Assembly (NCBI GenBank): GCA_003551625.1
Contig: PUNC01000243.1
Location: forward strand, 1-60,741
From: PVC group bacterium
GTDB taxonomy: Bacteria; Auribacterota; Erginobacteria; Erginobacterales; PUNC01
Direction: 5' to 3'
Length of the DNA stretch: 60,741 bases
The notes beneath the pieces are model-generated. The model was not told the DNA's origin. It saw only the letters and a list, made by a program, of their open reading frames with translations, and ran no database searches. Positions 1,190-56,792 of this stretch are shown here, one piece after another. Every line of letters begins with the position of its first letter. Within the stretch, counting starts at the first letter, position 1. The position numbers and the translations under genes are program-made.

Positions 1190-1858
1190 TCAAGTTTTCG
1201 CCGCCCCGGCGCGGGAAGAAGTCCGGGGCAAACGGGCTTTCAGAATACGCTTGTGCCGATCGGTCAGTTCGGTGAAGTAAAGCGTCAGATCGAATCTCCC
1301 GCCCCGCTTCTCCCGGGCGCAATTGACCACCACCGCCGGGAGCCGGACCGGATCCTTCCCCGTCGAGGAGCCCCCCTCCCCCGCCACCATCTCAACCTCA
1401 ACCTCCTGGAAGAGGGGGATTTCCCGGTCGGACTTGCAGGTGACGCCGTTGCGGGCGAGATTGGCCTGGTGGGAAACCATCGGCTTTTCGCCGGGCCGGC
1501 GGTTCCGCTTCGACCAGGCCAGGTATTCGTCGATCTTCCGGCGAACCCCCGCCGGCAGCCGCCGGAAGTTGAAGTCAATCTCGAATCCCCCGGTTCCGCG
1601 GCGCGCGGAGGCCGGACGGGCGAGGCAGACCACCTCCTGCCGGCCGTCGCCGGAACCGGGAGAAGGCAGCAGGAGTTTGATCTCCACGGGGGAGTCGGCG
1701 GAAAACTCGGTATCGAACAAGCAGGAAATACCCTTGGGAGTGAGCTTGCAGCCGCGGCCGTTGAACCGGCTTCGGCCCCGGCGAATCTCGATCGGGAAGA
1801 ATTCGGAATCGGGAACGGCGCCGTCCTCTTCCTTGGAAAGAACGGCGATGTCAGCCAT
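1190..1858 (-). CDS. Hypothetical protein, possibly tandem PilZ-like domains
   Basis: 222-aa ORF with ATG start (1858). Two similar halves with Arg-rich segments (IEIRRGRSRF). The PilZ assignment is only a weak resemblance. Confidence 0.45.
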   Translation of the reverse strand: MADIAVLSKEEDGAVPDSEFFPIEIRRGRSRFNGRGCKLTPKGISCLFDTEFSADSPVEIKLLLPSPGSGDGRQEVVCLARPASARRGTGGFEIDFNFRRLPAGVRRKIDEYLAWSKRNRRPGEKPMVSHQANLARNGVTCKSDREIPLFQEVEVEMVAGEGGSSTGKDPVRLPAVVVNCAREKRGGRFDLTLYFTELTDRHKRILKARLPRTSSRAGAAKT

Positions 1859-2086
1859 TTTTTATCAGCGTTATCACGATAAGACCCAGAAAAAAGCGCG
1901 GGGGCGGCCCCGGCCATCCGCCGCCCCGGCGGGTATCGTATCCGAAAGGAAATACTCCGAACCCGCGCCCCCAAATCCGCCGTTCCGGGCGATGCCGATT
2001 GCCGAAAGGGGGCCGCGACTGTTTGCTAACCTACTCATATCATTTAAACTCACGGCTGTCAAGAATCTGGAGGACAAATTCCGGGA

Positions 2087-2485
2087 TTATTTTTCCGGGA
2101 TACCTGTCTCCGGCGGTCTCTCTTCTCCGGCCAGAGGATTGACCGCGATCCGGATTTCAAGATCTTCGCCCCCGAAGTCCAGGGCGAAATCGGTCGTCAG
2201 CCGGTGAAGCAGAAGATTGAAGGGCATCTCCGCTCTTCCGGCCTCGCTCTCCACCACCAGCCGGGCCCGGCCCAGAATGGGCCCGGCCCGCCGGATCGCG
2301 GAGAGCAGCTCCCGGAGAAGGCCGAGCCTCTCCGCCGTCCGGTCGTCAAGCCGTTCAACCCGGCCGCAGGCCGGACAGCGGATCCCGCGGTCTTCCCCGA
2401 TGGTCTCGAAATCGAATCGAACCGGGAGCCGGCATCGCTCATTCCGGCAAAGGAGTTCGGCGGTCGGCGGCTTTTCCTGGCTCAT
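2087..2485 (-). CDS. Hypothetical small zinc-ribbon protein
   Basis: ORF 2087-2503. The second ATG (2485) has a GAGGTG 6 nt upstream, so it is preferred. Two Cys pairs: CRNERC and CPACG. Confidence 0.5.
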   Translation of the reverse strand: MSQEKPPTAELLCRNERCRLPVRFDFETIGEDRGIRCPACGRVERLDDRTAERLGLLRELLSAIRRAGPILGRARLVVESEAGRAEMPFNLLLHRLTTDFALDFGGEDLEIRIAVNPLAGEERPPETGIPEK

Positions 2486-2528
2486 CACGCTCACCTCTTT
2501 CATAAATAATCCGGTTTCAGGCCGCCGA

Positions 2529-3407
2529 TCAATCGGCGGGGTAGAGACTCAACTGGCCCGCGGCCCGGACCCGTTCCAGGCGGGGATAATAAACCGCCAG
2601 CGCGTCGGGGACCGCTACCGGCCCGCCCTCGAGCCGGGACCGGAGTTCCAGGCAGTTGCAGACCGCCTGCCCCCGGAAATGGTTGTTGGCGATCACATAG
2701 ACCGCGGCGGCGGCCTCTTTCAGGGAGTTTATTCGACCCACCCATTCTTCGAGTTCCTCCTCCGGGTAGAGATAGTCGTAGCGCTCGTCCCGGCCGGCGT
2801 CTTCCCGGAACCAGTTCGCGGCGTTCCTCCCGTGAAGACGGACATAGGCCGTCGGGGCGGTGACGACCGCGGTCGGCGGCAGCGAATATGAAACCGGAGG
2901 CTGATCGATGTTGCAGAAGCCGATCCCTTCGTCCCGGAGAAAGCCGAAGACCTCCTCCCGGGCCCAGGAACGATGACGGAATTCGGCGACCAACGGCCAG
3001 TCGGCGAAACGCTCTTTCAGCCGCTTCAGATAAGCGGTGTTCTCCGCCCGACGGTGAAACGAGTAGGGAAACTGGGCGAGCAGGGCCCCCAGCCGGCCCG
3101 ACTCCAGCAGCAGGGCCATCCCCTTCTCCCACTCTTTTCCTTCCCGCCCCGGATCCGCTTCCCGCGTATGGGTGAACCCCCGCCAGAGCTTGGCGGTAAA
3201 ACGAAAATCGGCCGCGGCGGCGGTATCGCTCAACCACCGGAGAAGATTCTCCTTTCGGGGCGGGCGGTAAAAAGTCACGTTGATCTCGACGGCCTGCAGA
3301 TACCGGCTCAGATACGCCAGGCGGTTGGAAGCGGGGCGGGGGTAAACGATCCCGTCCCAATCGGGATAATGCCATCCCGCCGTTGCCGCTCTCACCCGGG
3401 CGGTCAT
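2529..3407 (-). CDS. DUF72 (YecE-like) family protein
   Basis: C-terminal 292 aa of the 513-aa track ORF, starting MTARVRAATAGWHYPDWDGIVYP. Contains VEINVTFYRPP, YVRLHGRN and VIANNHFRGQA, typical of DUF72. The ATG at 3407 overlaps the upstream stop as ATGA. Confidence 0.85.
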   Translation of the reverse strand: MTARVRAATAGWHYPDWDGIVYPRPASNRLAYLSRYLQAVEINVTFYRPPRKENLLRWLSDTAAAADFRFTAKLWRGFTHTREADPGREGKEWEKGMALLLESGRLGALLAQFPYSFHRRAENTAYLKRLKERFADWPLVAEFRHRSWAREEVFGFLRDEGIGFCNIDQPPVSYSLPPTAVVTAPTAYVRLHGRNAANWFREDAGRDERYDYLYPEEELEEWVGRINSLKEAAAAVYVIANNHFRGQAVCNCLELRSRLEGGPVAVPDALAVYYPRLERVRAAGQLSLYPAD

Positions 3408-4240
3408 CGCCCGCGCCTCCCCTTCGGAACGGCCCGGCGGATCTCTACCCGGTCCCCCGGCCGGAGACCGAACTCTTTGGCGGCCGAGCCGCCGTTGACG
3501 GCGATCTCCAGGTAGCCGGAACTTCCCCACAGGGCCGCCCGGCCGCCTTTGGGAACGGAACCGTAACTGGCCGCGAGGGGAAGTTCCCCGGGATCGGGAC
3601 CGGAGGAAGTCGCGACGGTCAGCCGGGCCGGCGGCCGGAAAAGGGCGGCGGCCCGGGCGGCGGCGATCGAAGTGATCAGATTGCCGAAACGATCGACGTA
3701 AACGATCTCGCCGCTCCACCCCTTTCCGCCGAGGCGGCGCGAACGGGGACGGGGCAGCAGCACCGGATCGGAGACCGCGGGGCCCAGCTCGGAAGGTTCC
3801 AGACCCCGGGCCAGGCGGGCGGCCACCGGCGCGAAGATATCGCGTCCGTGAAATGTCCGGCTCACTACGGGCAGAAACAGGCTCCGGTCGCGGACGGAAT
3901 ATACTTTCGCCCGCGGAGACGACCGGAGGGGGAAGGAGAGGAGGCCGTTGTCGGGCGCGATGAAACGGCTCCGGCCCCGCCGGAAGGCGATAATCCGGCG
4001 CGAGGTTCCCACGCCCGGATCCACCACGGCCAGGAAGACCGTCTCCGGGGGAAAGAAACGGCGGCAGCATTCGAGAACGAAAGCCGCGGACCGGATGTCG
4101 CCCGGTTCGATCTGATGGGTGATATCGGCCAGCCTCGCCCCCGGAACGAGGGAGAGAATCACCCCTCTCATCGCGCCGACAAACCAGTCCCGCTCGCCGA
4201 AATCGGTGAGCAGGGCGATCGGTGCCGGCGGTTTATTCAT
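3404..4240 (-). CDS. SAM hydrolase / SAM-dependent halogenase family protein (DUF62, SAM hydroxide adenosyltransferase-like)
   Basis: Starts at the internal ATG 4240 (MNKPPAPIALLTDFGERDWFVGAMRGVILSL). Also VVDPGVGT and YVDRFGNLITS. The N-terminal track extension overlaps ridA and is Pro/Arg-rich junk. Confidence 0.85.
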   Translation of the reverse strand: MNKPPAPIALLTDFGERDWFVGAMRGVILSLVPGARLADITHQIEPGDIRSAAFVLECCRRFFPPETVFLAVVDPGVGTSRRIIAFRRGRSRFIAPDNGLLSFPLRSSPRAKVYSVRDRSLFLPVVSRTFHGRDIFAPVAARLARGLEPSELGPAVSDPVLLPRPRSRRLGGKGWSGEIVYVDRFGNLITSIAAARAAALFRPPARLTVATSSGPDPGELPLAASYGSVPKGGRAALWGSSGYLEIAVNGGSAAKEFGLRPGDRVEIRRAVPKGRRGR

Positions 4241-4616
4241 CGCCCCGCCAGGCCACGGCTTCAAGCTCAACCCGGGCGCCCTTCGGCAGGGCCGCGACCT
4301 GGAAAGCCGCGCGGGCGGGCGGGCGGGAGACGAAGTAATCGGAGTAAACCCGGTTGAAGGCGGGATAGTCGTCAAGGTCCCACAGGTAAACGGTGGTCTT
4401 GACCACGTCCTCCAATCCGTAACCGGCGGCTTCCAGGACCGCCTTGAGGTTTTCCAGGACGGCGACGGCCTCATCCTCGATCCCGCCGGCTACCCGGGCG
4501 CCGTCGGCCTTAAGCGGCAGTTGGCCGGAGACGAACAGAAATCCTCCCGCCGCGACCGCCTGGGAATAGGGACCGATGGCGGCCGGAGCTCTTTCGGTGG
4601 CGATTATCTTCTTCAT
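4233..4616 (-). CDS. ridA: RidA family reactive-intermediate deaminase (YjgF/L-PSP)
   Basis: 127 aa: MKKIIATERAPAAIGPYSQAV..FVSGQLP..VKTTVYL..PARAAFQVAALPKGARVELEAVA. Confidence 0.9.
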   Translation of the reverse strand: MKKIIATERAPAAIGPYSQAVAAGGFLFVSGQLPLKADGARVAGGIEDEAVAVLENLKAVLEAAGYGLEDVVKTTVYLWDLDDYPAFNRVYSDYFVSRPPARAAFQVAALPKGARVELEAVAWRGDE

Positions 4617-5953
4617 TATTTCACCTCCTTCTCCCCGGATTTTACCAGCAGCGCGCAGTAATAGCCATCCCCGGGACCGTCTCCCGGCAGGGCGGACCCG
4701 GCGGAGGCGAGAACGAAATCCTTCCGGTCCCGAAGAAAGCCGTCGACCACTTCCCGGTTTTCCTCCGGCTCGATCGAGCAGGTGCTGTAAACCAGGCGGC
4801 CGCCGGGTTTGACCGTTCCGGCGGCGGCGGCCAGCATCCGGCCGGCCCGGCGGGCCAGACGGTCCGGATCGGAAGGGCGCAGTCGCCAGCGGGCGTCGAC
4901 CCGGCGGCGGAAAACCCCGGTATTGGAACAGGGGACGTCGAGCAGCGCCGCGTCGGCGGCGGAGAGAGCGACGGCGGGCCGGAAGGCGTCCATCCGCGCC
5001 GGCCGGGCGCAGGCGATTTTAAGCCGGGAGATGTTTTCCACCAGGAGCTTGATCCTTTCCGGTGAACGATCGGCGGCGAGCACTACTCCCCGTCCACCCA
5101 TCTTCTCGGCCGCGTAGGTTGCCTTTCCCCCGGGTGAAGCGCAGAAATCGACCACCAGCTCCCCGGGGCGGGGGTCGAGAAGTTTTACCGCCTCCAGGGT
5201 GGATGGATCCTGCACCTGGAACCATCCTTCCCGAAAGGGCTCCAGTTCGGAAAGCGACCCCGCCGGCTCAAGCACACCGATATTCGGCCTCCCCGGGAGG
5301 GGGAGATAGCTCCGCCCGGCGCGGGCCAGCTTCTCCCGCAAAGCCCGGGGTTCGGCGACCAACCGGTTTACCCGGATGTAAACCGGGGGGGGAGAGTTGC
5401 CGGCGCGGCAGATCTCCTCCGTCCGGGCCCGGCCCCATCTTTTCAGCCAGCGATCGACAAGCCAGCGGGGATGGGAATGAACCGCCGCCAGCCTATCGAC
5501 AACCCCTTCCTCCGGCCACTCCGGAGAAAAATCCGGTCGGGAAAAACGCCGCAGGAGAGCGTTGAGATAGGCGCGTTCGGGCCGGGAGAGAAATTCCCGG
5601 GCCAGTTCGCCGGCCTGGTGGACGACGGCGTGGGGAGCCGGTGCCAAAATTTCCTCCCGGAGATGGAAGACGGACAGGCGGAGAATCTGCCGGGCGTAGG
5701 AAGCCGGCGGCGGCCGGCGGCGGGGCGAATAAAGATCGATCAGCCGGTCAAGCCGCCCCCGCAGGCGGAGCACGCCGTAAACCGAGGAGACGACCAGCGC
5801 GCGGTCGGACGGAGAAAGTCCTGAACCGGGAAGAGCTTCCTCAAGCAGATCGCGGGCGAAGCGGCCCTTCTGTTCCCAATCGCGTAGAATACGGACGATC
5901 AGCCGGCGCGCCGCGGTCGCCGAGGAGGAGGGGTTGGTGGAGCGCGGTTTCAA
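4616..5953 (-). CDS. rsmB: 16S rRNA (cytosine967-C5)-methyltransferase
   Basis: NusB-like N-terminus plus methyltransferase motifs FCASPGGKATY, DVPCSNTGV and YSTCSIEPEEN. The first codon is TTG (no nearby ATG). The stop overlaps the ridA ATG by 1 nt. Confidence 0.9.
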   Translation of the reverse strand: MKPRSTNPSSSATAARRLIVRILRDWEQKGRFARDLLEEALPGSGLSPSDRALVVSSVYGVLRLRGRLDRLIDLYSPRRRPPPASYARQILRLSVFHLREEILAPAPHAVVHQAGELAREFLSRPERAYLNALLRRFSRPDFSPEWPEEGVVDRLAAVHSHPRWLVDRWLKRWGRARTEEICRAGNSPPPVYIRVNRLVAEPRALREKLARAGRSYLPLPGRPNIGVLEPAGSLSELEPFREGWFQVQDPSTLEAVKLLDPRPGELVVDFCASPGGKATYAAEKMGGRGVVLAADRSPERIKLLVENISRLKIACARPARMDAFRPAVALSAADAALLDVPCSNTGVFRRRVDARWRLRPSDPDRLARRAGRMLAAAAGTVKPGGRLVYSTCSIEPEENREVVDGFLRDRKDFVLASAGSALPGDGPGDGYYCALLVKSGEKEVK

Positions 5954-7353: not shown

Positions 7354-7820
7354 TGCCCCCCCGGTTCGATTCCGTCGAGATTCAGCCGGTCTCCGACCCG
7401 GACCCCGGCCGCGGCGAACCATCCCCGGTTCATCTCCAGGGCGAACCGGTAAGGCAGCGGAGACCGGTAGCGCTTCTCCCCTCCGTCGGGGACCATCTCC
7501 TGGATACTGAGGATATACCCGTCGGCGTTGATGAAGGCGATCGAAAGCGGGATGGGAACCCCGCGCATCCAGAAGGCCCCCTGAGTCGGTTCGGGAAAAA
7601 CAAAGAGCATCCCCTCGTTCTCGCCGAGACGGGCCCTTCCCTGCAGGCCGCGGGTTCGCGCCTCCGGGGTGGCGGCCACTTCCACTTTTACCCGCCTACC
7701 GCCGATCTCCAGCGAGCGCTCCGGCAGGACAGCGTCTTCCCGGCCGCAACCGGCCGCCACCAGGACGTGGACCAGCGCGAACCCGGCCGTCAGAAAGCGG
7801 AAAACCAAGCGCCGGCTCAT
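7350..7820 (-). CDS. DUF192 domain lipoprotein
   Basis: Internal ATG 7820 (MSRRLVFRFLTAGFALVHVLVAAGC, a lipobox-like signal). Then EVAATPEARTRGLQGR..GMLFVF..FWMRGVPIPLSIAFI, typical of DUF192. ATGA overlaps at both ends. Confidence 0.75.
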   Translation of the reverse strand: MSRRLVFRFLTAGFALVHVLVAAGCGREDAVLPERSLEIGGRRVKVEVAATPEARTRGLQGRARLGENEGMLFVFPEPTQGAFWMRGVPIPLSIAFINADGYILSIQEMVPDGGEKRYRSPLPYRFALEMNRGWFAAAGVRVGDRLNLDGIEPGGQ

Positions 7821-8890
7821 CGCTGAACGCAGACCGCCCGGGTTGCCTTCCAGACATAGAAGAAGTAAACCGCGAAGAAGATCACGAAGAAAAAGGCCAT
7901 CCCGGCGGGCAGCAGCCGGTCGATCACGCCCAGGATCACGGCCGGAATCAGGGCGTGAACCGCGATCGAGAAGAGAGCCGGAAACTTCAGCCGGGAGGTC
8001 CCGGAACAGGCCAGCGCCGCCACCGCGCAGCCCACCAGGGCCTGGAAAATACGGGAGACGAAATACAGAAAATAGAACAGGACCAGCAGTAACGGGGAGA
8101 AGATCCACCCGGCCAGCCGCCGCCAGCGGTCGAGGGTTTCGTCGTCGAGACGATAGGTTCTCTCCCCGGCAAGACTTTCCAGGTCACGCACCATCGGCCG
8201 CCCCAGGAAACCCGCGGGGGCGCGATCCCCTTCCTCCCGGTCGGTGAAATCCGCGAACGGCTGGAAGCGGACCTCGTCCCGGGTGAGGAGAAATCCTTCC
8301 GAACGCGGGGGAAAACCCGGGTCCTCGCCGGTAAGATCCACCTTGAAGACAAACCTCCCGAAGTCGGAACGGTCCCGGAGATAATCCTCCGCCTCCGGCT
8401 CCAGAACCGGGCGTTCTTCGATCTTGCGGGCCACCTCGGAAGGGGTGATCTCCCGGTCCGGGTCGGGAAACGTCTCCTCCAGCCACTCCAGAACCGGCGC
8501 GGTAACCTCTTCCGGGGCCGCCCGGTCGTGCGAGATCCTTCTTTTGAGAATCCCGGCCGGATAGGAATGCTCCTCTTCCAGGAGAAAATAATCATCCTCC
8601 ATCTCCACCCGCCCGTTCCGGATGACGATATGGGAAAGCCTTCCTTCAACAAGGGAATAAATCCGGCCGAGATACCTCCGGTTGAAAAAGTAAACGTCCC
8701 GGCCGCCCAGAATCAGGGTTACCGCCAGGACCAAAAAGGCGAGATTCCGGAAGGTGAACCCCAGCGGGCGGTCGGCCAGCCGGCGATAGAAGGAAAAACT
8801 GGTAACGCAGCCCCGGATCAGCTCGAACGGACCGATCGACGGCGCTTTCCCCGAAAGCGGTTGTTTCTCACCGGTCTCCAAGTTCAACAC
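7817..8890 (-). CDS. Hypothetical integral membrane protein
   Basis: 357-aa ORF. One TM segment near residue 50 and several C-terminal TM segments (LLLVLFYFLYFV, AVILGVI, FFFVIFFAVYFFYVW), with an acidic middle region. Confidence 0.6.
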   Translation of the reverse strand: MLNLETGEKQPLSGKAPSIGPFELIRGCVTSFSFYRRLADRPLGFTFRNLAFLVLAVTLILGGRDVYFFNRRYLGRIYSLVEGRLSHIVIRNGRVEMEDDYFLLEEEHSYPAGILKRRISHDRAAPEEVTAPVLEWLEETFPDPDREITPSEVARKIEERPVLEPEAEDYLRDRSDFGRFVFKVDLTGEDPGFPPRSEGFLLTRDEVRFQPFADFTDREEGDRAPAGFLGRPMVRDLESLAGERTYRLDDETLDRWRRLAGWIFSPLLLVLFYFLYFVSRIFQALVGCAVAALACSGTSRLKFPALFSIAVHALIPAVILGVIDRLLPAGMAFFFVIFFAVYFFYVWKATRAVCVQR

Positions 8891-27810: not shown

Positions 27811-28389
27811 ATGAAACTGAAGAATATCCACCCGGGAGAAATGCTCAAGCCTTCTTCCTCGATTCTGATGGTCCTGGCCGAGTTCAACCACCTAAAAAAC
27901 CTTTACCGGCAGGGCTGGCTGAAAAGACACGTCCGGCCGGAGAAATGCGAAAGCGTGGCCGAGCACAGCTTCTCGGTCACCCTCCTGGCGATGTTCCTGG
28001 CGGAAAACCTCTTCCCCGAAGCGGACCTGCTCAAGGTCGTCCGCATCGCCCTGATTCACGAGGCCGGCGAGATCCACGCCGGAGACATCACCCCGGTCGA
28101 CGGGGTAAGCCCGGAAGAGAAATACCGCCGGGAGCAGGAATCGGTGATCCGGGTCTTCGACGGCCTCGGCCGGGCCGAAGAGTATATCGACCTCTGGGAG
28201 GAGTTCGAACTGAACCGGAGCCTGGAAGCGAAGCTGGTCCGGCAGGCCGACCGTCTGGAGATGCTGCTGCAGGCTAAATACTATGAAAAGCTGGGCTACT
28301 GGGACTTCGCCGAATTCTTCCGCAACACCGACCCGCTGATCGACTCGCCGCGACTCCGCCCCCTCTTTGAAGAGCTGAAAATGCTTTAA
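27811..28389 (+). CDS. HD domain phosphohydrolase (YfbR-like 5'-nucleotidase family)
   Basis: LKNLYRQGWL..ESVAEHSFSV..ALIHEAGEIHAGDITP..RQADRLEMLLQA. Confidence 0.8.
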   Translation: MKLKNIHPGEMLKPSSSILMVLAEFNHLKNLYRQGWLKRHVRPEKCESVAEHSFSVTLLAMFLAENLFPEADLLKVVRIALIHEAGEIHAGDITPVDGVSPEEKYRREQESVIRVFDGLGRAEEYIDLWEEFELNRSLEAKLVRQADRLEMLLQAKYYEKLGYWDFAEFFRNTDPLIDSPRLRPLFEELKML

Positions 28390-28453
28390 CCATCGCTTAC
28401 CCGAAAAGCCCACAGCCCCCCTCACCCTCCCTCGACAAGCTCGGGACAAGTTG

Positions 28454-28485
28454 CCCTCTCCCCCCGTCGGGGGGCGAGGGTTTTA
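28454..28485 (+). terminator. Rho-independent terminator after the HD gene
   Basis: ccctctcccccc-gtc-ggggggcgaggg followed by tttt. Confidence 0.6.
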
Positions 28486-46841: not shown

Positions 46842-47125
46842 AAAGCTTTCGTAACCAACTCTTTCGTAGCGCAGCCCTTTAGGGCTGCCCCAGTGAGGCA
46901 GGGCTAAAGCCCTGCACTACGAACTGCGAATTAAGGATGCCCGGCAGGCCGAGTTGATAAGATAATAAGTTTATAAGTTGACAAGTGCCGGGGTTCAAAG
47001 GTTCCGGGTTCTCGGAATAATCCGGTTTGAATGAGTATGTGTAAGAGTATGTGTAAAAGTACGTGTAAGAGTACGTGTTCTATATGTCTCCAGAGTTAAT
47101 ATATTTTCCAAAACTTATTAAGCGT
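46842..47125. repeat. Mosaic intergenic repeat island, copy 2 (between pheS and pheT)
   Basis: Twin hairpins 46865-46921. gataagat/aataagtt/tataagtt/gacaagtg (46956-87). 35-mer core 46976-47010. aataatccggttt 47016-28. Four 12-nt units 47035-82. ctccagagttaatatattttccaaa about 47089-47113. Confidence 0.85.
46970..46998 (-). promoter_or_regulatory. Promoter-like site inside the repeat module (TTGAAC-17-TATAAA), facing pheT
   Basis: The minus strand reads TTGAACcccggcacttgtcaactTATAAA. The same arrangement occurs at 54535-54563. Confidence 0.4.
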
Positions 47126-49343: not shown

Positions 49344-51077
49344 TTACCCGCCGGCTTTTGAAGCGATTTCTTGCTTGACCCGGGAGATAAACTCATCCAC
49401 GCCCGCCGACCCCGATTCCCCCGCCGAACGCCGGCGGATGGATACCGTGCCGGCGGCCGCTTCTTTTTCTCCCACCACCAGCATATAAGGGATCTTCTCC
49501 TTCTGGGCCTGGCGGATCTTCCAGTTCAGCTTCTCCGGCCGATCGTCCAGCTCAACCCGGATCCCCTCCCCGACAAACCTTTCCTTCACTCCGGACGCGT
49601 AATCGAGCGCCTTGGCCGAGACCGGCAGTATCCGGGCTTGCACCGGGGAGAGCCACAACGGAAAAGCCCCGGCGTAATGCTCGATCAGTATTCCCAAAAA
49701 CCTTTCCACCGAACCCAGCGCCGCGCGATGGATCATTACCGGCCGGTGGCGGGCCCCGTCGGGCCCGACGTATTCCAGATTAAAACGCGCCGGCATGGAA
49801 AAATCAAGCTGGATGGTCCCGCACTGGTAGCTGCGCTTGAGGCTGTCGCGGATATGAAAATCGATCTTGGGGCCGTAGAAGGCCCCCTCCCCTTCGTTGA
49901 TCTGAAAATCTATTCCCGCTTCCCGGAGCGCGGCGGCGAGAGCGGCCGTGGCGGTTTCCCAATCCTCGACGCTCCCGATAAAGGATTCCGGACGGGTGGA
50001 AATTTCGACTTGGTATTCGCTGAAACCGACCGTGCGGTAGATCTCCAGGATCAGGGAAGCCACTTCGACGATCTCGTCTTTGATCTGTTCCGGCAGGCAA
50101 AATATGTGGGCGTCGTCGATTACGAAACTCTGAACCCGGAACAGACCGTGCAGGACTCCGGTCAACTCCCGCCGGTGAACCCTTCCCAGTTCGGCGATCC
50201 GGAGCGGAAACTCCCGGTAGGAATGCTGGGTCTGCTTGTAGTAAATGATCACGCCGGGACAGTTCATCGGCTTGAGAGCGAAACCCTGTTCGCCGAACTT
50301 GACGAAATACATATGGTCCTTGTAATGGTCCCAGTGGCCGCTCTGATGCCAGAGGCTGTCTTCGAGAACCACCGGAGTCATTATCTCCCGGTAACCTCTC
50401 GCGCGATGAACTTCTCTCCAGTATTCCACCACGGACTGATAAAGGACCACGCCCCGGGGATGAAAGAAGGGGCTGCCCGGCGCTTCGGGATGGAGGCTGA
50501 ACAGGTCCAGTTCCTTGCCCAGGCGACGGTGATCCCTTTTCCTGGCTTCTTCGACCAGCTTGAGGTATCCCTCGAGGCTTTTTCGGTCCGGGAAAGCGGT
50601 TCCATAGATCCTCTGGAGCATCGGCTTCTGCTCGTCGCCCTTCCAGTAGGCCCCGGCCAGGCTCAGCAGCTTAAAGGCCTTGATCTGACCGCCGCGCTCC
50701 AGGTGGGGGCCCTGGCAGAGGTCCACAAAATCACCGTGGCGATAAACCGTTATCTTCTCGCCTTTGAGCCCTTCCAGGAGTTCAAGCTTGTAGTCCTCTC
50801 CCAGCCGCCGGAACAGGTCGACGGCTTCCTGGTGGGAGAGTTCCCGCCGCTCGAAGGGATGGTCCTCGGCGATGATCTTTTCCATCTCCCGCTCGATCTC
50901 CTCGAACCGCTCGGGGGTGACGGCTTCGGGAATGTCGAAGTCATAGTAGAAGCCGTCCTCGATCGCCGGTCCGATGCCCAGCCGGACGGAGGGGAAGAGA
51001 CGCTTGACCGCCGCCGCCATAACGTGGGCGGCGCTGTGGCGAAGCGTATCCAATTGTTCCGAATCCCGTTTATTCAT
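49344..51077 (-). CDS. thrS: Threonine--tRNA ligase lacking the N-terminal TGS domain
   Basis: Starts MNKRDSEQLDTLRHSAAHVMAAAVKRLFP, directly at the editing/SAD HxxxH region. Class II core and anticodon-binding domain follow. 577 aa. Confidence 0.9.
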   Translation of the reverse strand: MNKRDSEQLDTLRHSAAHVMAAAVKRLFPSVRLGIGPAIEDGFYYDFDIPEAVTPERFEEIEREMEKIIAEDHPFERRELSHQEAVDLFRRLGEDYKLELLEGLKGEKITVYRHGDFVDLCQGPHLERGGQIKAFKLLSLAGAYWKGDEQKPMLQRIYGTAFPDRKSLEGYLKLVEEARKRDHRRLGKELDLFSLHPEAPGSPFFHPRGVVLYQSVVEYWREVHRARGYREIMTPVVLEDSLWHQSGHWDHYKDHMYFVKFGEQGFALKPMNCPGVIIYYKQTQHSYREFPLRIAELGRVHRRELTGVLHGLFRVQSFVIDDAHIFCLPEQIKDEIVEVASLILEIYRTVGFSEYQVEISTRPESFIGSVEDWETATAALAAALREAGIDFQINEGEGAFYGPKIDFHIRDSLKRSYQCGTIQLDFSMPARFNLEYVGPDGARHRPVMIHRAALGSVERFLGILIEHYAGAFPLWLSPVQARILPVSAKALDYASGVKERFVGEGIRVELDDRPEKLNWKIRQAQKEKIPYMLVVGEKEAAAGTVSIRRRSAGESGSAGVDEFISRVKQEIASKAGG

Positions 51078-54392: not shown

Positions 54393-54761
54393 CTCAAGCT
54401 TCCAGGTTCAGGGGTTCAAAAGTTATAAAGCAGATTCCAGATTCTAGATTTTGGATTTCAGTCAAGCCCGGTTCCGCCCATTTTTCATCTCGGGATAACA
54501 GAAGCCCAGCAGGCCAAGTCGATAAGATGATAAGTTTATAAGTTGATAAGTGCCGGGGTTCAAAGGTTCCGGGTTTGTTCAAAGTTATTACTCGGAGCAT
54601 AAAATAGTTTACTAAGGAGAGCATAAAATAGGTTGCACGTCATTGCGAGGAGCGAAGCGACGAAGCAATCTCATTGGACATTGCGAATTGGAAATTTTAA
54701 CCCGCGGTGAAACTTTGCGGGTCGGCATTCGCTTTTAACGCTATGCCCTATGCGCTATGCG
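54393..54761. repeat. Mosaic intergenic repeat island, copy 3
   Basis: cagattc x4 stutter (54431-58). gataag 8-nt stutter (54521-52). 35-mer (54541-75). gagcataaaata x2. cattgcgaggagcgaagcgacgaagcaatc (54641-70). 30-mer (54695-724). ctatgcS x3 (54741-61), which runs into the CDS stop. Confidence 0.85.
54535..54563 (-). promoter_or_regulatory. Promoter-like site inside the repeat module (TTGAAC-17-TATAAA), facing ispH-ogt
   Basis: The minus strand reads TTGAACcccggcacttatcaactTATAAA. Confidence 0.4.
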
Positions 54762-55863
54762 TTCTTTCAACGAATTCCCTGACCGCCCGGCAAACATACT
54801 CGATCTGCTCTTCGGTCAGCTCCGGAAAGATCGGCAGCGACAGAATCTCGGCGGCCAGCCTTTCGGCCACCGGGAAATCACCGGCCGAATAACCGAGGTC
54901 GCGGTAAGCCTTCTGAAGATGAACCGGGATCGGATAGTGTATGCCGCAACCGATCCCCCGGGCGCTCAAATCGGCCAGCAGTTCGTCCCGGCGGGTGGAG
55001 CGGATCACGAAGAGATGATAGACGTGGCGGTTGCCCGGCGTTTCGGAGGGCGGGATCACGCCGGCGGAGTCCAGAAGCTCACGGTAACGATCGGCGTGGC
55101 GACGGCGGGCGTCATTCCATCCTGAAAGACGGGGCAGCTTGACGCCGAGAACGGCGGCCTGCATTGTGTCCAGGCGGCTGTTCCATCCCACGATGTCGTG
55201 ATAATACTTGCGCGACTGCCCGTAGTTCCTGAACATCCGCGCCTGCCCGGCGACCTCTTCGTCGTCGGTGACGATGGCCCCCCCGTCCCCGTAGGCGCCC
55301 AGGTTCTTCCCCGGGTAGAAACTGAAGCATCCCGCCCTCCCCATCTTCCCGCAGCGGAGGCCCCGGTATTCGGCCCCGTGAGCCTGGGCGGCGTCTTCGA
55401 TCACGACCAGGTGATACTCTTCGGCGATCGCCGCGATCGCGTCCATATCGGCGGACTGGCCGTAAAGGTGAACCGGGATGACCGCCTTGGTCCGGGGGGT
55501 AACGGCTTTCCTTACCGCCGACGGATCGATCTGGAAAGAATCTTCCCGGCAATCCACCAGGACCGGCCGCGCGCCCGCGTAGCTGATCGCGAGTACCGTG
55601 GCGATGTAGGTGTTGGCCGCCGTGATCACCTCGTCGCCCGGACCGATCCCGCAGGCTTTCAACGCCCACAGGAGGGCGTCGCATCCACTTCCGACCCCCA
55701 CGCAGTATTTCGCGCCGCAGAATTCGGCGAAGGCCTCTTCAAACGCTTCCACTTCCTCCCCAAGTATGAACGCTCCTCGTTTCATAACACTCTCGACCGC
55801 CGGGATGATCTCCGAAGCGATATTCGCGTATTGCGTCTGCAGATCGACGAACGGTATCTTCAT
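54748..55863 (-). CDS. DegT/DnrJ/EryC1 family PLP aminotransferase (WbpE/WlbC-like)
   Basis: MKIPFVDLQTQYANI..GEEVEAFEEAFAEFCGAKYCVGVGSGCDAL.. Starts at the second ATG (55863), with AAGGAG 5 nt upstream. The 576-aa track ORF is an artefactual upstream extension. Confidence 0.88.
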   Translation of the reverse strand: MKIPFVDLQTQYANIASEIIPAVESVMKRGAFILGEEVEAFEEAFAEFCGAKYCVGVGSGCDALLWALKACGIGPGDEVITAANTYIATVLAISYAGARPVLVDCREDSFQIDPSAVRKAVTPRTKAVIPVHLYGQSADMDAIAAIAEEYHLVVIEDAAQAHGAEYRGLRCGKMGRAGCFSFYPGKNLGAYGDGGAIVTDDEEVAGQARMFRNYGQSRKYYHDIVGWNSRLDTMQAAVLGVKLPRLSGWNDARRRHADRYRELLDSAGVIPPSETPGNRHVYHLFVIRSTRRDELLADLSARGIGCGIHYPIPVHLQKAYRDLGYSAGDFPVAERLAAEILSLPIFPELTEEQIEYVCRAVREFVERTHSA

Positions 55864-55866
55864 CAT

Positions 55867-56087
55867 TTCTCCTTGGGCAGGCTTTTCATACTGCTTTCCT
55901 AAGATATCCCCGTTTTTCCAAACCTGTCGGAATAATCCGGTTTGAGTATGTGTAAGAGTACGTGTGAGAGTACGTGTAAGAGTATGGGATGGATAAGAGT
56001 TCACCTTCGACATTGGACATTGAGAATTGGGAGTTGGACATTCGCTTTTAACCCTGCGCGCTCTGCGCTTCGCGTCTTTTCCCCATC
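55867..56087. repeat. Mosaic intergenic repeat island, copy 4
   Basis: ttttccaaacctgtcggaataatccggtttga (55914-45). 12-nt units gtaYgtgtRaga (55946-93). cattgga 7-nt stutter x5 (56011-45). ctgcgcg/ctctgcg/cttcgcg (56054-74). Confidence 0.85.
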
Positions 56088-56792
56088 TCACTTCCTCAAC
56101 CCCAGCTTCAGCAGAAATATCGGCCGCAGCAGCTTCCACCAGTCGATCCCCGGCCGGATCTTGGTATAGCCGAGCTTTTTCGGCGGGTAGATCTTGGTCA
56201 CCGGGACCTCTTTTACCCGGTAGCCCAACGTTGCCGCCCGGTAGAGTATATAGGGTTCTAATTCGTAGGCGTTCAGCCACTCCTGATCGAGGTTGATCCT
56301 CGGGTCGGAGAAGATGCTCAGCCGGATGGCCCGGAAGCCGTTCGTGGTGTCGGTAAAGCGGCTTCCGGTCGCGAGGTTCATCAGCCAGGGATGAAGCCGG
56401 GTGGCCAGGCGGCGGTAGGCGGGCATTCCCCCGCTGGTTCCGCCGGCAAGATAGCGCGAACCCTGCGCGAGATCGCAACCGTCGGCGATCTCGCGAAGCA
56501 GCAGGGGTATCTCGGAAGGCCGGTCCTTGTCGTTCCCGGCCAGGATTACGATCACGTCAAAACCGTGGGAGCGGGCGTATTTGACGGCGGTCCGAATCGC
56601 AGCGCCGACACCATAACGCTTCTCGTGAGAGACCACCTCCACCCCCCGCCGCTCGACCTCCCGCCGGGTCTCATCGGTGGAGGCGTCATCCACGACGATG
56701 ATCTTGTCCACCAGCCCGGGGGTGAAACGGTCCAGGACCCGTCCGATCTTCTCTCCCTCGTTGAACGCGACCGGTGCCGCCAGCGTCCTCAC
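56088..56792 (-). CDS. Family 2 glycosyltransferase
   Basis: AAPVAFNEGEKIG..IIVVDDASTDET.. is a GT-A fold. The GTG at 56792 overlaps the upstream TGA (GTGA). Confidence 0.75.
   Translation of the reverse strand: MRTLAAPVAFNEGEKIGRVLDRFTPGLVDKIIVVDDASTDETRREVERRGVEVVSHEKRYGVGAAIRTAVKYARSHGFDVIVILAGNDKDRPSEIPLLLREIADGCDLAQGSRYLAGGTSGGMPAYRRLATRLHPWLMNLATGSRFTDTTNGFRAIRLSIFSDPRINLDQEWLNAYELEPYILYRAATLGYRVKEVPVTKIYPPKKLGYTKIRPGIDWWKLLRPIFLLKLGLRK

Follow-up and report, generated by a model that had tools for sequence, protein, structure and literature searches.

A 221-nt spacer within a WbpB/WbpD/GT2/WbpE-type operon of a PVC group bacterium is probably a patchwork of short repeat families

What holds two genes of an otherwise tight operon 221 nucleotides (nt) apart, and is the gene beyond the interruption a cassette? 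The question is raised by positions 55867-56087 of contig PUNC01000243.1 from a PVC group bacterium (60,741 nt in all, hereafter the window), which are the exact intergenic gap between two minus-strand genes, one for a GT2 glycosyltransferase and one for a DegT/DnrJ/EryC1 (WbpE-like) aminotransferase. A first-pass annotation had read this spacer as the fourth in a set of mosaic islands (copy 4), and had proposed that copies 3 and 4 bracket the aminotransferase gene in a cassette-like arrangement. We argue that copy 4 probably arose by clean widening of the GT2-aminotransferase junction, in an operon of the WbpB/WbpD/GT2/WbpE type that is tight elsewhere. Five or more independent families of short repeats would make up the patchwork, namely a palindrome arm, a 16-nt core whose hairpin tail varies, a 12-nt array, a 7-nt stutter and, close to the stop, a module containing degenerate heptamers. 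The genes on either side are intact, and the modules differ in copy number and in break points. Comparison of close lineages shows that the spacer changes by insertion or deletion of modules and by changes in heptamer copy number.

From the downstream to the upstream gene of the pair, the locus is composed as follows:
54748-55866, minus strand: DegT/DnrJ/EryC1 (WbpE-like) aminotransferase, the bracketed gene (Pfam PF01041, E 2.8e-127)
55864-55890, minus strand: leader that includes the start codon and the Shine-Dalgarno sequence AAGGAG (55869-55874); single-copy, with a source-sample depth of 14.6
55891-55912, no strand assigned: module m1, ctgctttcctaagatatccccg, a single arm of a small palindrome found whole in other copies; m1 is also present in copy 1
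55913-55928, no strand assigned: module m2, the 16-nt core tttttccaaacctgtc, with contig break points at 55912/13 and 55927/28
55929-55945, no strand assigned: module m3, ggaataatccggtttga, common to copies 1 and 2 and to the relative L017
55944-55987, plus strand: 12-nt tandem array (GAGTAYGTGTRA) of 3.4 units (Tandem Repeats Finder [TRF] score 68, 89% matches)
55985-56010, no strand assigned: junction segment tgggatggataagagttcaccttcga, resembling the arm-loop junction of a hairpin at locus L055 (36 nt at 78%)
56011-56045, plus strand: 7-nt stutter cattgga/cattgag/aattggg/agttgga/cattcgc (TRF 4.9 copies, score 31)
56039-56081, plus strand: stop-proximal module R, cattcgcttttaac and three degenerate heptamers, from alignment to copy 3
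56088-56792, minus strand: GT2 glycosyltransferase, the upstream operon partner (Pfam PF00535)

The aminotransferase starts at 55866/55863, the database gene call of 371 amino acids (aa) being from 55863, and the GT2 stop is the TGA at 56088-56090. Upstream of GT2 lie genes for a hexapeptide acetyltransferase and a Gfo/Idh/MocA oxidoreductase, which make up the WbpD/WbpB-like pair. The aminotransferase frame stays open across the whole 221-nt spacer into GT2, giving a 576-codon open reading frame (ORF; 54748-56478, minus strand). This open frame is probably due to chance, and a gene caller could merge or mis-start the aminotransferase owing to it.

Every motif listed in the first-pass annotation was found in the spacer at checked coordinates, so that its description of a mosaic island is borne out. 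The 32-mer ttttccaaacctgtcggaataatccggtttga occupies 55914-55945; the 12-nt units are gagtatgtgtaa (55944-55955), gagtacgtgtga (55956-55967), gagtacgtgtaa (55968-55979) and a partial gagtatgg, and the C-rich strand of their array is the sense strand of the flanking genes. The units of the 7-nt stutter are degenerate (68% matches), cattcgcttttaaccc lies at 56039-56054, and the degenerate heptamers ctgcgcg/ctctgcg/cttcgcg follow at 56054-56074. Periodicity was tested against 2000 dinucleotide-preserving shuffles of the spacer. At lag 12, 26 of 30 positions matched, and at lag 7, 21 of 28, neither value being reached by any shuffle; the ctgcgcg triple is weaker, with 11/14 matches, a value reached by 13 shuffles. 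The 16-mer GTACGTGTAAGAGTAC, with at most 3 mismatches allowed, occurs 8 times in the window, always in copies 1, 2 or 4, for a chance expectation of 0.01. The patchwork is genuine, and chance falls far short of explaining it.

Aligning the spacer locally, at high sensitivity, to the entire window provided the module map and showed that copy 4 has modules in common with copies 1 to 3:
55896-55977 against copy 1, 21081-20996: 88% over 86 nt, E 4e-22
55927-55995 against copy 2, 47012-47084: 84% over 73 nt
56011-56035 against copy 3, 54672-54696: 88% over 25 nt
56021-56081 against copy 3, 54708-54768 (direct repeat D16): 72% over 61 nt

Altogether, ~170 of the 221 nt have paralogues elsewhere, and the only unique parts are 24 nt at the aminotransferase start and the last few nt at the GT2 stop. 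A diverged second copy of m2 is present within copy 1 (I11). In copy 3, a 30-nt hairpin module (ttttaacccgcggtgaaactttgcgggtcg) sits between the cattgga stutter and the cattcgc part of module R. Wherever module B, the 12-mer array and module A occur, each points the same way with respect to the gene downstream. Copies 1 and 3 carry the small hairpin module ttttaacccgcggtgaaactttgcgggtcg in opposite orientations (D20 versus I1-I6), indicating that modules are oriented independently. Modules m2 and m3 together form a weak 6-bp stem, CAAACC/GGTTTG, whose right arm varies as T, A or C, uncompensated, among copy 4, copy 1 and L017.

The modules also differ in abundance. Contigs of the source metagenome X1 (salt-lake; 97% of words) were placed on the spacer at 88% likeness or more, and their depths, being sums over a community, give rough copy numbers only. 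The summed depth was 14.6 on the leader, 36-45 on module B, 390-860 on the 12-mer array, 23-46 on the 7-mer/R part and 11.6 on the GT2 side. The array thus stands at 27-59x baseline and the remaining modules at ~2-5x, and from these ratios only the 12-mer array would have tens of copies, the remaining modules having about 2-6. Module R, at 23-46, would have about 2-3 copies, and for the heptamer cattggacattg, which recurs in copy 3, depth likewise hints at only about 2-3. Among the parts of module B, m2 is deepest (~65 in X1 and 300-390 in the metagenomes X2 and X3, with baselines of 9.1-14.6). At 80% likeness in X1, X2 and X3, contigs break at 55891, 55912/13, 55927/28 and 55945/47, with diverging continuations. 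The ~10-fold differences in module abundance and the internal break points argue for a mosaic of families rather than for one composite element.

A second locus in the source sample, on a 998-nt contig of depth 19.9, matches 55944-56048 with 9 substitutions and 12 gap letters. Whether in GTDB species genomes or in JGI metagenome contigs, a 19-mer of module B gave only chance coding matches, and IMG/VR gave none; the module is lineage-specific. Within copy 3, the motif cattgcgaggagcgaagcgacgaagcaatc (54639-54673) reaches a summed depth of 1500-4900 in all three metagenomes, its flanks standing at 12-16; it is an extremely abundant repeat, one that many organisms probably have in common.

That the spacer is an expansion is indicated by two independent relatives, L018 and L050, in which Gfo/Idh/MocA (WbpB), hexapeptide (WbpD), GT2 and aminotransferase genes are contiguous in the same order. 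The GT2-aminotransferase gap is 33 nt in L018 (70% aa identity) and 57 nt in L050 (69% aa identity), and the window GT2 is 73% identical to the GT2 of both and ends in the same C-terminal residues (...LGLRK and stop). Given these short gaps and the unchanged GT2 end, the 221-nt spacer is best read as clean growth of the gap, with the stop on one side and the start on the other left intact. An alignment search with the aminotransferase returned only relatives at 50-59% identity from many phyla, which is uninformative for taxonomy or synteny. Elsewhere in the window, the threonyl-tRNA synthetase encoded at 49344-51077 (minus strand) is at most 72% identical to any database protein, and its best named relatives, 'PVC group bacterium' and Candidatus Auribacterota, stand at 67-68%, from which we conclude that the window comes from a poorly sampled PVC lineage.

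Closer relatives show how the spacer turns over. The first-pass annotation would have given up its proposal had both spacers been invariant among related genomes; they are variable, with an 85-nt insert in L017, an unrelated upstream sequence in L039 and an extra heptamer downstream of the gene. L017, whose aminotransferase has 82% aa and 79.5% nt identity and 55.6% identity at fourfold-degenerate sites, bears the same module upstream of the gene (67 nt at 94%), and its leader is identical at 27/27 positions up to the start codon. Module B and leader together are 90/94 identical to L017 versus 55.6% at fourfold sites (P ~1e-18 at the neutral rate). Between module B and leader, L017 carries its 85-nt insert (L017 61-152), which completes the palindrome ATCTTAGGAAAGCAGGAG...CTCCTGCCTTCC...TCCTAAGAT of which copy 4 keeps one arm. 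Three source-sample contigs continue leftward from 55891 as L017 does, and complete copies of the palindrome are therefore probably present in or near this genome. In L039 and L040 (94% aa and 92.7% nt identity; assembled from two runs), the 130 nt upstream are unlike anything in the window, divergence in L039 beginning right at the ribosome-binding site, and the sequence downstream is the R module of copy 3 plus one extra heptamer. Module B and leader are thus either under purifying selection or recently exchanged, and the closest lineage has replaced them; across lineages the spacer is neither invariant nor simply neutral.

At the other end of the gene (54741-54761), the last four codons of the aminotransferase (THSA) and its TAG stop are encoded by two CTATGCG heptamer units. 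The L017 aminotransferase terminates six residues earlier (...AVAEFF and stop), and L039 has its extra heptamer just after the stop, which together indicate that the array took over the gene end.

We propose that the mosaic would have grown as small non-autonomous palindromic repeats were inserted time and again and partly deleted, while the 7- and 12-nt units would expand by replication slippage and copies would recombine. The spacer, in which the scan called no intrinsic terminator on the minus strand, would be transcribed with the operon and the aminotransferase translated from its own conserved Shine-Dalgarno leader, possibly with the help of a weak internal promoter in the module adjoining the leader. 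Several points weigh against this account. The insertion mechanism is one that we infer, with no transposase, target-site duplication or terminal inverted repeat found for copy 4; co-transcription and promoter activity are likewise deductions from sequence; and copy numbers are taken from summed metagenome contig depths, to which other organisms may contribute. Moreover, at 90/94 identity, module B and leader look less like passive junk than like sequence that is under selection or was recently exchanged.

The 12-nt array has counterparts well beyond this genome. The 22-mer GAGTAYGTGTRAGAGTAYGTGT has 6 exact matches in 185,579 species genomes versus ~0.5 expected by our own estimate, five of them in PVC metagenome-assembled genomes (MAGs). 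Of the 17 matches of the 19-mer GTAYGTGTAAGAGTAYGTG, 14 are in PVC, distributed over Pirellulaceae (5 loci in 3 MAGs), Victivallales (5 loci in 2 MAGs), Lentisphaerales (1), Kiritimatiellae GH19 (2) and a 'PVC group bacterium' (1); words of the array had no match in IMG/VR. At most 19-mer loci, the array is one arm of a ~100-nt imperfect palindrome laid out as AGAGAT..GC-GTGTACGAGTACGTGTAAGAGTACGTG - variable G+C-rich loop - CC-GTACTCGTACAC..ATCTCT, its core being also written AGAGAT..GCGTGTACGAGTACGTGTAAGAGTACGTG - loop - CCGTACTCGTACAC..ATCTCT. The hairpin was located in Pirellulaceae, Victivallales, Lentisphaerales and a 'PVC group' MAG:
L041, 5641-5772: hairpin
L052, 1913-2044: hairpin
L058, 3490-3621: hairpin
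L051, 2423-2554: hairpin
L054, 3608-3739: hairpin
L056, 469-600: hairpin
L061, 7631-7762: hairpin
L057, 7030-7161: hairpin
L055, 632-763: hairpin

Ten full hairpins were aligned in all. The minimum free energy is -43 to -69 kcal/mol, and the arms are kept at sequence level, with compensatory changes in 3/26 pairs. The hairpin matched no Rfam family, and a literature search, in which the 12-mer words gave unrelated primers only, turned up no description of it. It occurs in convergent, co-directional and divergent spacers, and this variety of contexts points to an interspersed repeat rather than to a gene-specific regulator. The window and GH19 have a single arm only: in copy 4 (55944-55987), neither a partner arm nor the AGAGAT/ATCTCT clamp was found. 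The copy 4 array thus looks like a solo-arm derivative of the PVC hairpin, as in GH19.

In the same Kiritimatiellae MAG GH19 (L046), intergenic heptamer arrays of up to 26 units lie next to a solo 12-mer array. Their words are TTCAGTG (26 units), ACTGTAG (12 and 9), CAGTGTC (11) and AACGTCC (6), and the arrays lie at 3377-3560, 3594-3678, 5251-5297, 7805-7880 and 7915-7978. Stutter-rich spacers are therefore present in at least one other PVC lineage.

Against this background, the cassette proposal, in which copies 3 and 4 would recombine to excise, invert or swap the aminotransferase, can be weighed. Its factual part stands, for copies 3 and 4 do bracket a single gene with common direct repeats on either side (D16); the aminotransferase also occurs in other contexts at larger evolutionary distances (L047, L048), and the sequence upstream of it is replaced in L039. 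The cassette-like arrangement itself does not stand, composition and synteny being native. The compositional difference that the first-pass annotation had suggested looking for is not there: the aminotransferase (GC 0.623, GC at third codon positions [GC3] 0.769) does not differ from its operon partners (GC/GC3 0.634/0.799, 0.635/0.760 and 0.643/0.777), and among 43 window genes it comes 20th, a median rank, in how well its codon usage fits that of the others. The four-gene order with gaps of 33 and 57 nt in L018 and L050 also speaks against a cassette, as does the repeat flanking the gene, which is only 72% identical over 61 nt with a longest exact run of 14 nt by inspection of the alignment. 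No joint between two R modules was seen in the source-sample contigs, which drop rare variants. The one well-supported joint, 54575 > C > 55927 (depth 14.5), considered as an excision product, carries an extra C and corresponds to copy 2, where module A abuts module B (91% over 132 nt), and the other candidate joints have short anchors (22-29 nt) and link no R modules. Pfam scanning of ten neighbouring proteins revealed no integrase or recombinase, and no inverted repeat of at least 8 nt within 60 nt was present in 55850-56100; membership of copy 4 in attC, MITE or REP families was ruled out by the palindrome search. A recombination breakpoint in the 5' end of the aminotransferase was also rejected, L039 diverging right at the ribosome-binding site, outside the gene. 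The cassette reading is thus largely refuted and, in our judgment, very improbable, and the spacer is not supported as a cassette boundary. Less probable still is an assembly artefact in which GT2 and aminotransferase were misjoined via a common repeat. Logan contigs do break in the island, one of 1317 nt ending at 56033 and one of 3448 nt starting at 56024 with a 10-nt overlap, but a 50-nt contig (56004-56053) bridges the break with no differences, the adjacency of GT2 and aminotransferase matches that in independent relatives, and L017 has the same module upstream of its aminotransferase.

Function of the spacer at the RNA level raises two further readings, which can be compared on the following features and on the conservation of module B and leader:
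55926-56003, minus strand: C-rich, G-poor, unstructured sense-transcript stretch, 27 C and 6 G in 78 nt
55901-55930, minus strand: weak promoter-like pair, putative, CCGACA (55930-55925) - 18 nt - TATCTT (55906-55901)
A structured noncoding RNA (riboswitch, leader or small RNA) or a small protein gene would account for that conservation, and a 51-codon sense ORF (55886-56041) is available, but this is about as improbable as the cassette. The sense RNA folds worse than 197/200 shuffles (z = +2.0) and the antisense strand also folds poorly (z = +0.87); no Rfam 15 family matched the islands at gathering score, the best weak match being RybB (19.8 bits versus 40, E 0.51); and the sole hairpin stem is broken without compensation in copy 1 and L017. 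We rejected a structured RNA on the fold scores and Rfam, and likewise the small ORFs as not credible, the 51-codon frame having no Shine-Dalgarno sequence and YSYTYS repeats that are translated 12-mers. A more serious candidate, although an unlikely one, is an insulator, in which the C-rich unstructured transcript with YC dinucleotides spaced by 12 nt would load Rho after the GT2 stop and attenuate read-through, the next module serving as promoter and 5' untranslated region (UTR). Rho-loading sites are C-rich, G-poor, unstructured RNA with regularly spaced YC. The sense stretch 55926-56003 has a C/G ratio of 4.5, higher than in any other 78 nt of the 60.7-kb window, whichever strand is read, and copy 2 (3.5) is among the next highest. 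A similar C-rich, G-poor stretch at 28351-28469 (plus strand; 3.55) lies directly 3' of a plus-strand gene (27811-28389), at a convergent end, and may itself be a Rho-type termination region. In each of the window's three arrays the sense strand is the C-rich one, array, promoter-like module and gene follow in fixed order, the spacer RNA is unstructured, and module B and leader are far better conserved in L017 than fourfold sites. The CCGACA-18-TATCTT pair is located 34 nt upstream of the ATG. Its hexamers and their spacing do not vary among copy 4, copy 1 and L017, whereas the intervening 18 nt do, and these hold 4 of the 5 differences between copies 1 and 4. Against the insulator, the pair matches the sigma-70 consensus at only 8/12 positions and fell below the threshold of the promoter scan, other copies of the 16-nt core in metagenomes continue differently at the -10 site, the array of Kiritimatiellae GH19 (L043) is opposite in orientation to the flanking ORFs taken as genes, the array is only ~41 nt long, and conservation this high would also be expected if a mobilising protein recognised the repeat family or if exchange had been recent. 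More speculative again is the extended form, in which the islands would be portable insulators (Rho-loading array plus promoter module) inserted by the lineage into the tight operons GT2/wbpE, pheS/pheT and xseA/xseB to uncouple expression, the 12-mer deriving from a hairpin conserved at sequence level across Planctomycetota, Lentisphaerae/Victivallales and Kiritimatiellae; we hold this to be distinctly unlikely.

The patchwork of independent repeat families, which we therefore retain as the probable reading, can be compared with known repeat systems. Bacterial interspersed mosaic elements (BIMEs) are built from repetitive extragenic palindromic (REP) units, and REP/RAYT systems have been described (Nunvar et al. 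2010, PMC2817692; Di Nocera et al. 2013, PMC3733652). REP superfamilies have been reported in the PVC group; they carry a conserved GTAG or CGTC tetranucleotide at the palindrome end (PMC3733652), and more than 100 copies occur per genome (PMC2817692). A RAYT/TnpA_REP gene is associated with such repeats. Copy 4 resembles them in being intergenic, a location often found between co-directional operon genes, in being a mosaic of reusable modules, and in being multi-copy and lineage-specific with turnover by insertion and deletion. Unlike REP units, which are 20- to 40-bp palindromes, it has only the 6-bp stem CAAACC/GGTTTG, broken in copy 1 and L017; it lacks GTAG and CTAC, its single CGTC (56073-56076) is not beside a palindrome, alternating REP orientation is absent, much of it consists of tandem 7- and 12-nt repeats, and most of its modules have ~2-6 copies.

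Cyanobacterial short tandemly repeated repetitive (STRR) heptamers are short tandem heptamers in intergenic spacers. Intergenic direct repeats of the heptamer TAACTGA are known from Beggiatoaceae, Cyanobacteria and Bacteroidetes (MacGregor 2015, PMC4679880). As in these systems, the tandem 7-nt words of copy 4 are intergenic, with five units at 56011-56045 and three further degenerate ones at 56054-74; the systems themselves show heptamers confined to intergenic spacers, typically of 2-6 units and sometimes in long arrays, and a motif spread across distant lineages with no known transfer mechanism, for which post-transcriptional regulation has been proposed. The words of copy 4 are different, however, its heptamers are degenerate (68%) and embedded among non-tandem modules, its best-conserved unit is 12 nt long and comes from a hairpin arm, and its arrays are not immediately upstream of the start codon. 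The GH19 arrays are an STRR-like phenomenon outside cyanobacteria.

Composite repeats also include BOX of Streptococcus pneumoniae (boxA-boxB(n)-boxC), ERIC, RUP and Correia elements. Copy 4 is like BOX in being modular with variable internal units and intergenic, a setting in which neighbouring expression can be affected, but it has no sequence relation to BOX, nor the fixed order and stable fold of BOX. In integron cassettes, attC sites are related non-coding sequences bracketing a single gene. That likeness is offset by the lack of an imperfect palindrome in copy 4, by the ten neighbours free of integrase and by a gene native to its operon. As for miniature inverted-repeat transposable elements (MITEs), inverted repeats were not found and the break points lie inside the island at four places instead of bounding one unit. 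Copy 4 is thus neither REP nor BIME, neither attC nor MITE, and only the tandem intergenic heptamer is held in common with a described class. It works like known intergenic repeat mosaics, with reusable modules and rapid turnover.

The finding is not surprising in kind, as intergenic repeat mosaics are well known in bacteria and poorly understood. For annotation, it means that such islands are not to be taken for boundaries of cassettes or genomic islands, and that the operon they interrupt is native. The above-neutral conservation of the module and leader makes them a candidate promoter or 5' UTR in a lineage without genetics, and a candidate site for Rho loading is the sense transcript of the array, more C-rich and G-poor than anything else in 60 kb. 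The 12-nt unit ties this genome to a ~100-nt hairpin repeat common to PVC phyla and, as do the cross-phylum TAACTGA heptamers, bears on how short intergenic repeats spread and persist. If the portable-insulator reading were true, conservation of the hairpin would imply a PVC-wide recognising protein or a mobile micro-element that crosses phyla.

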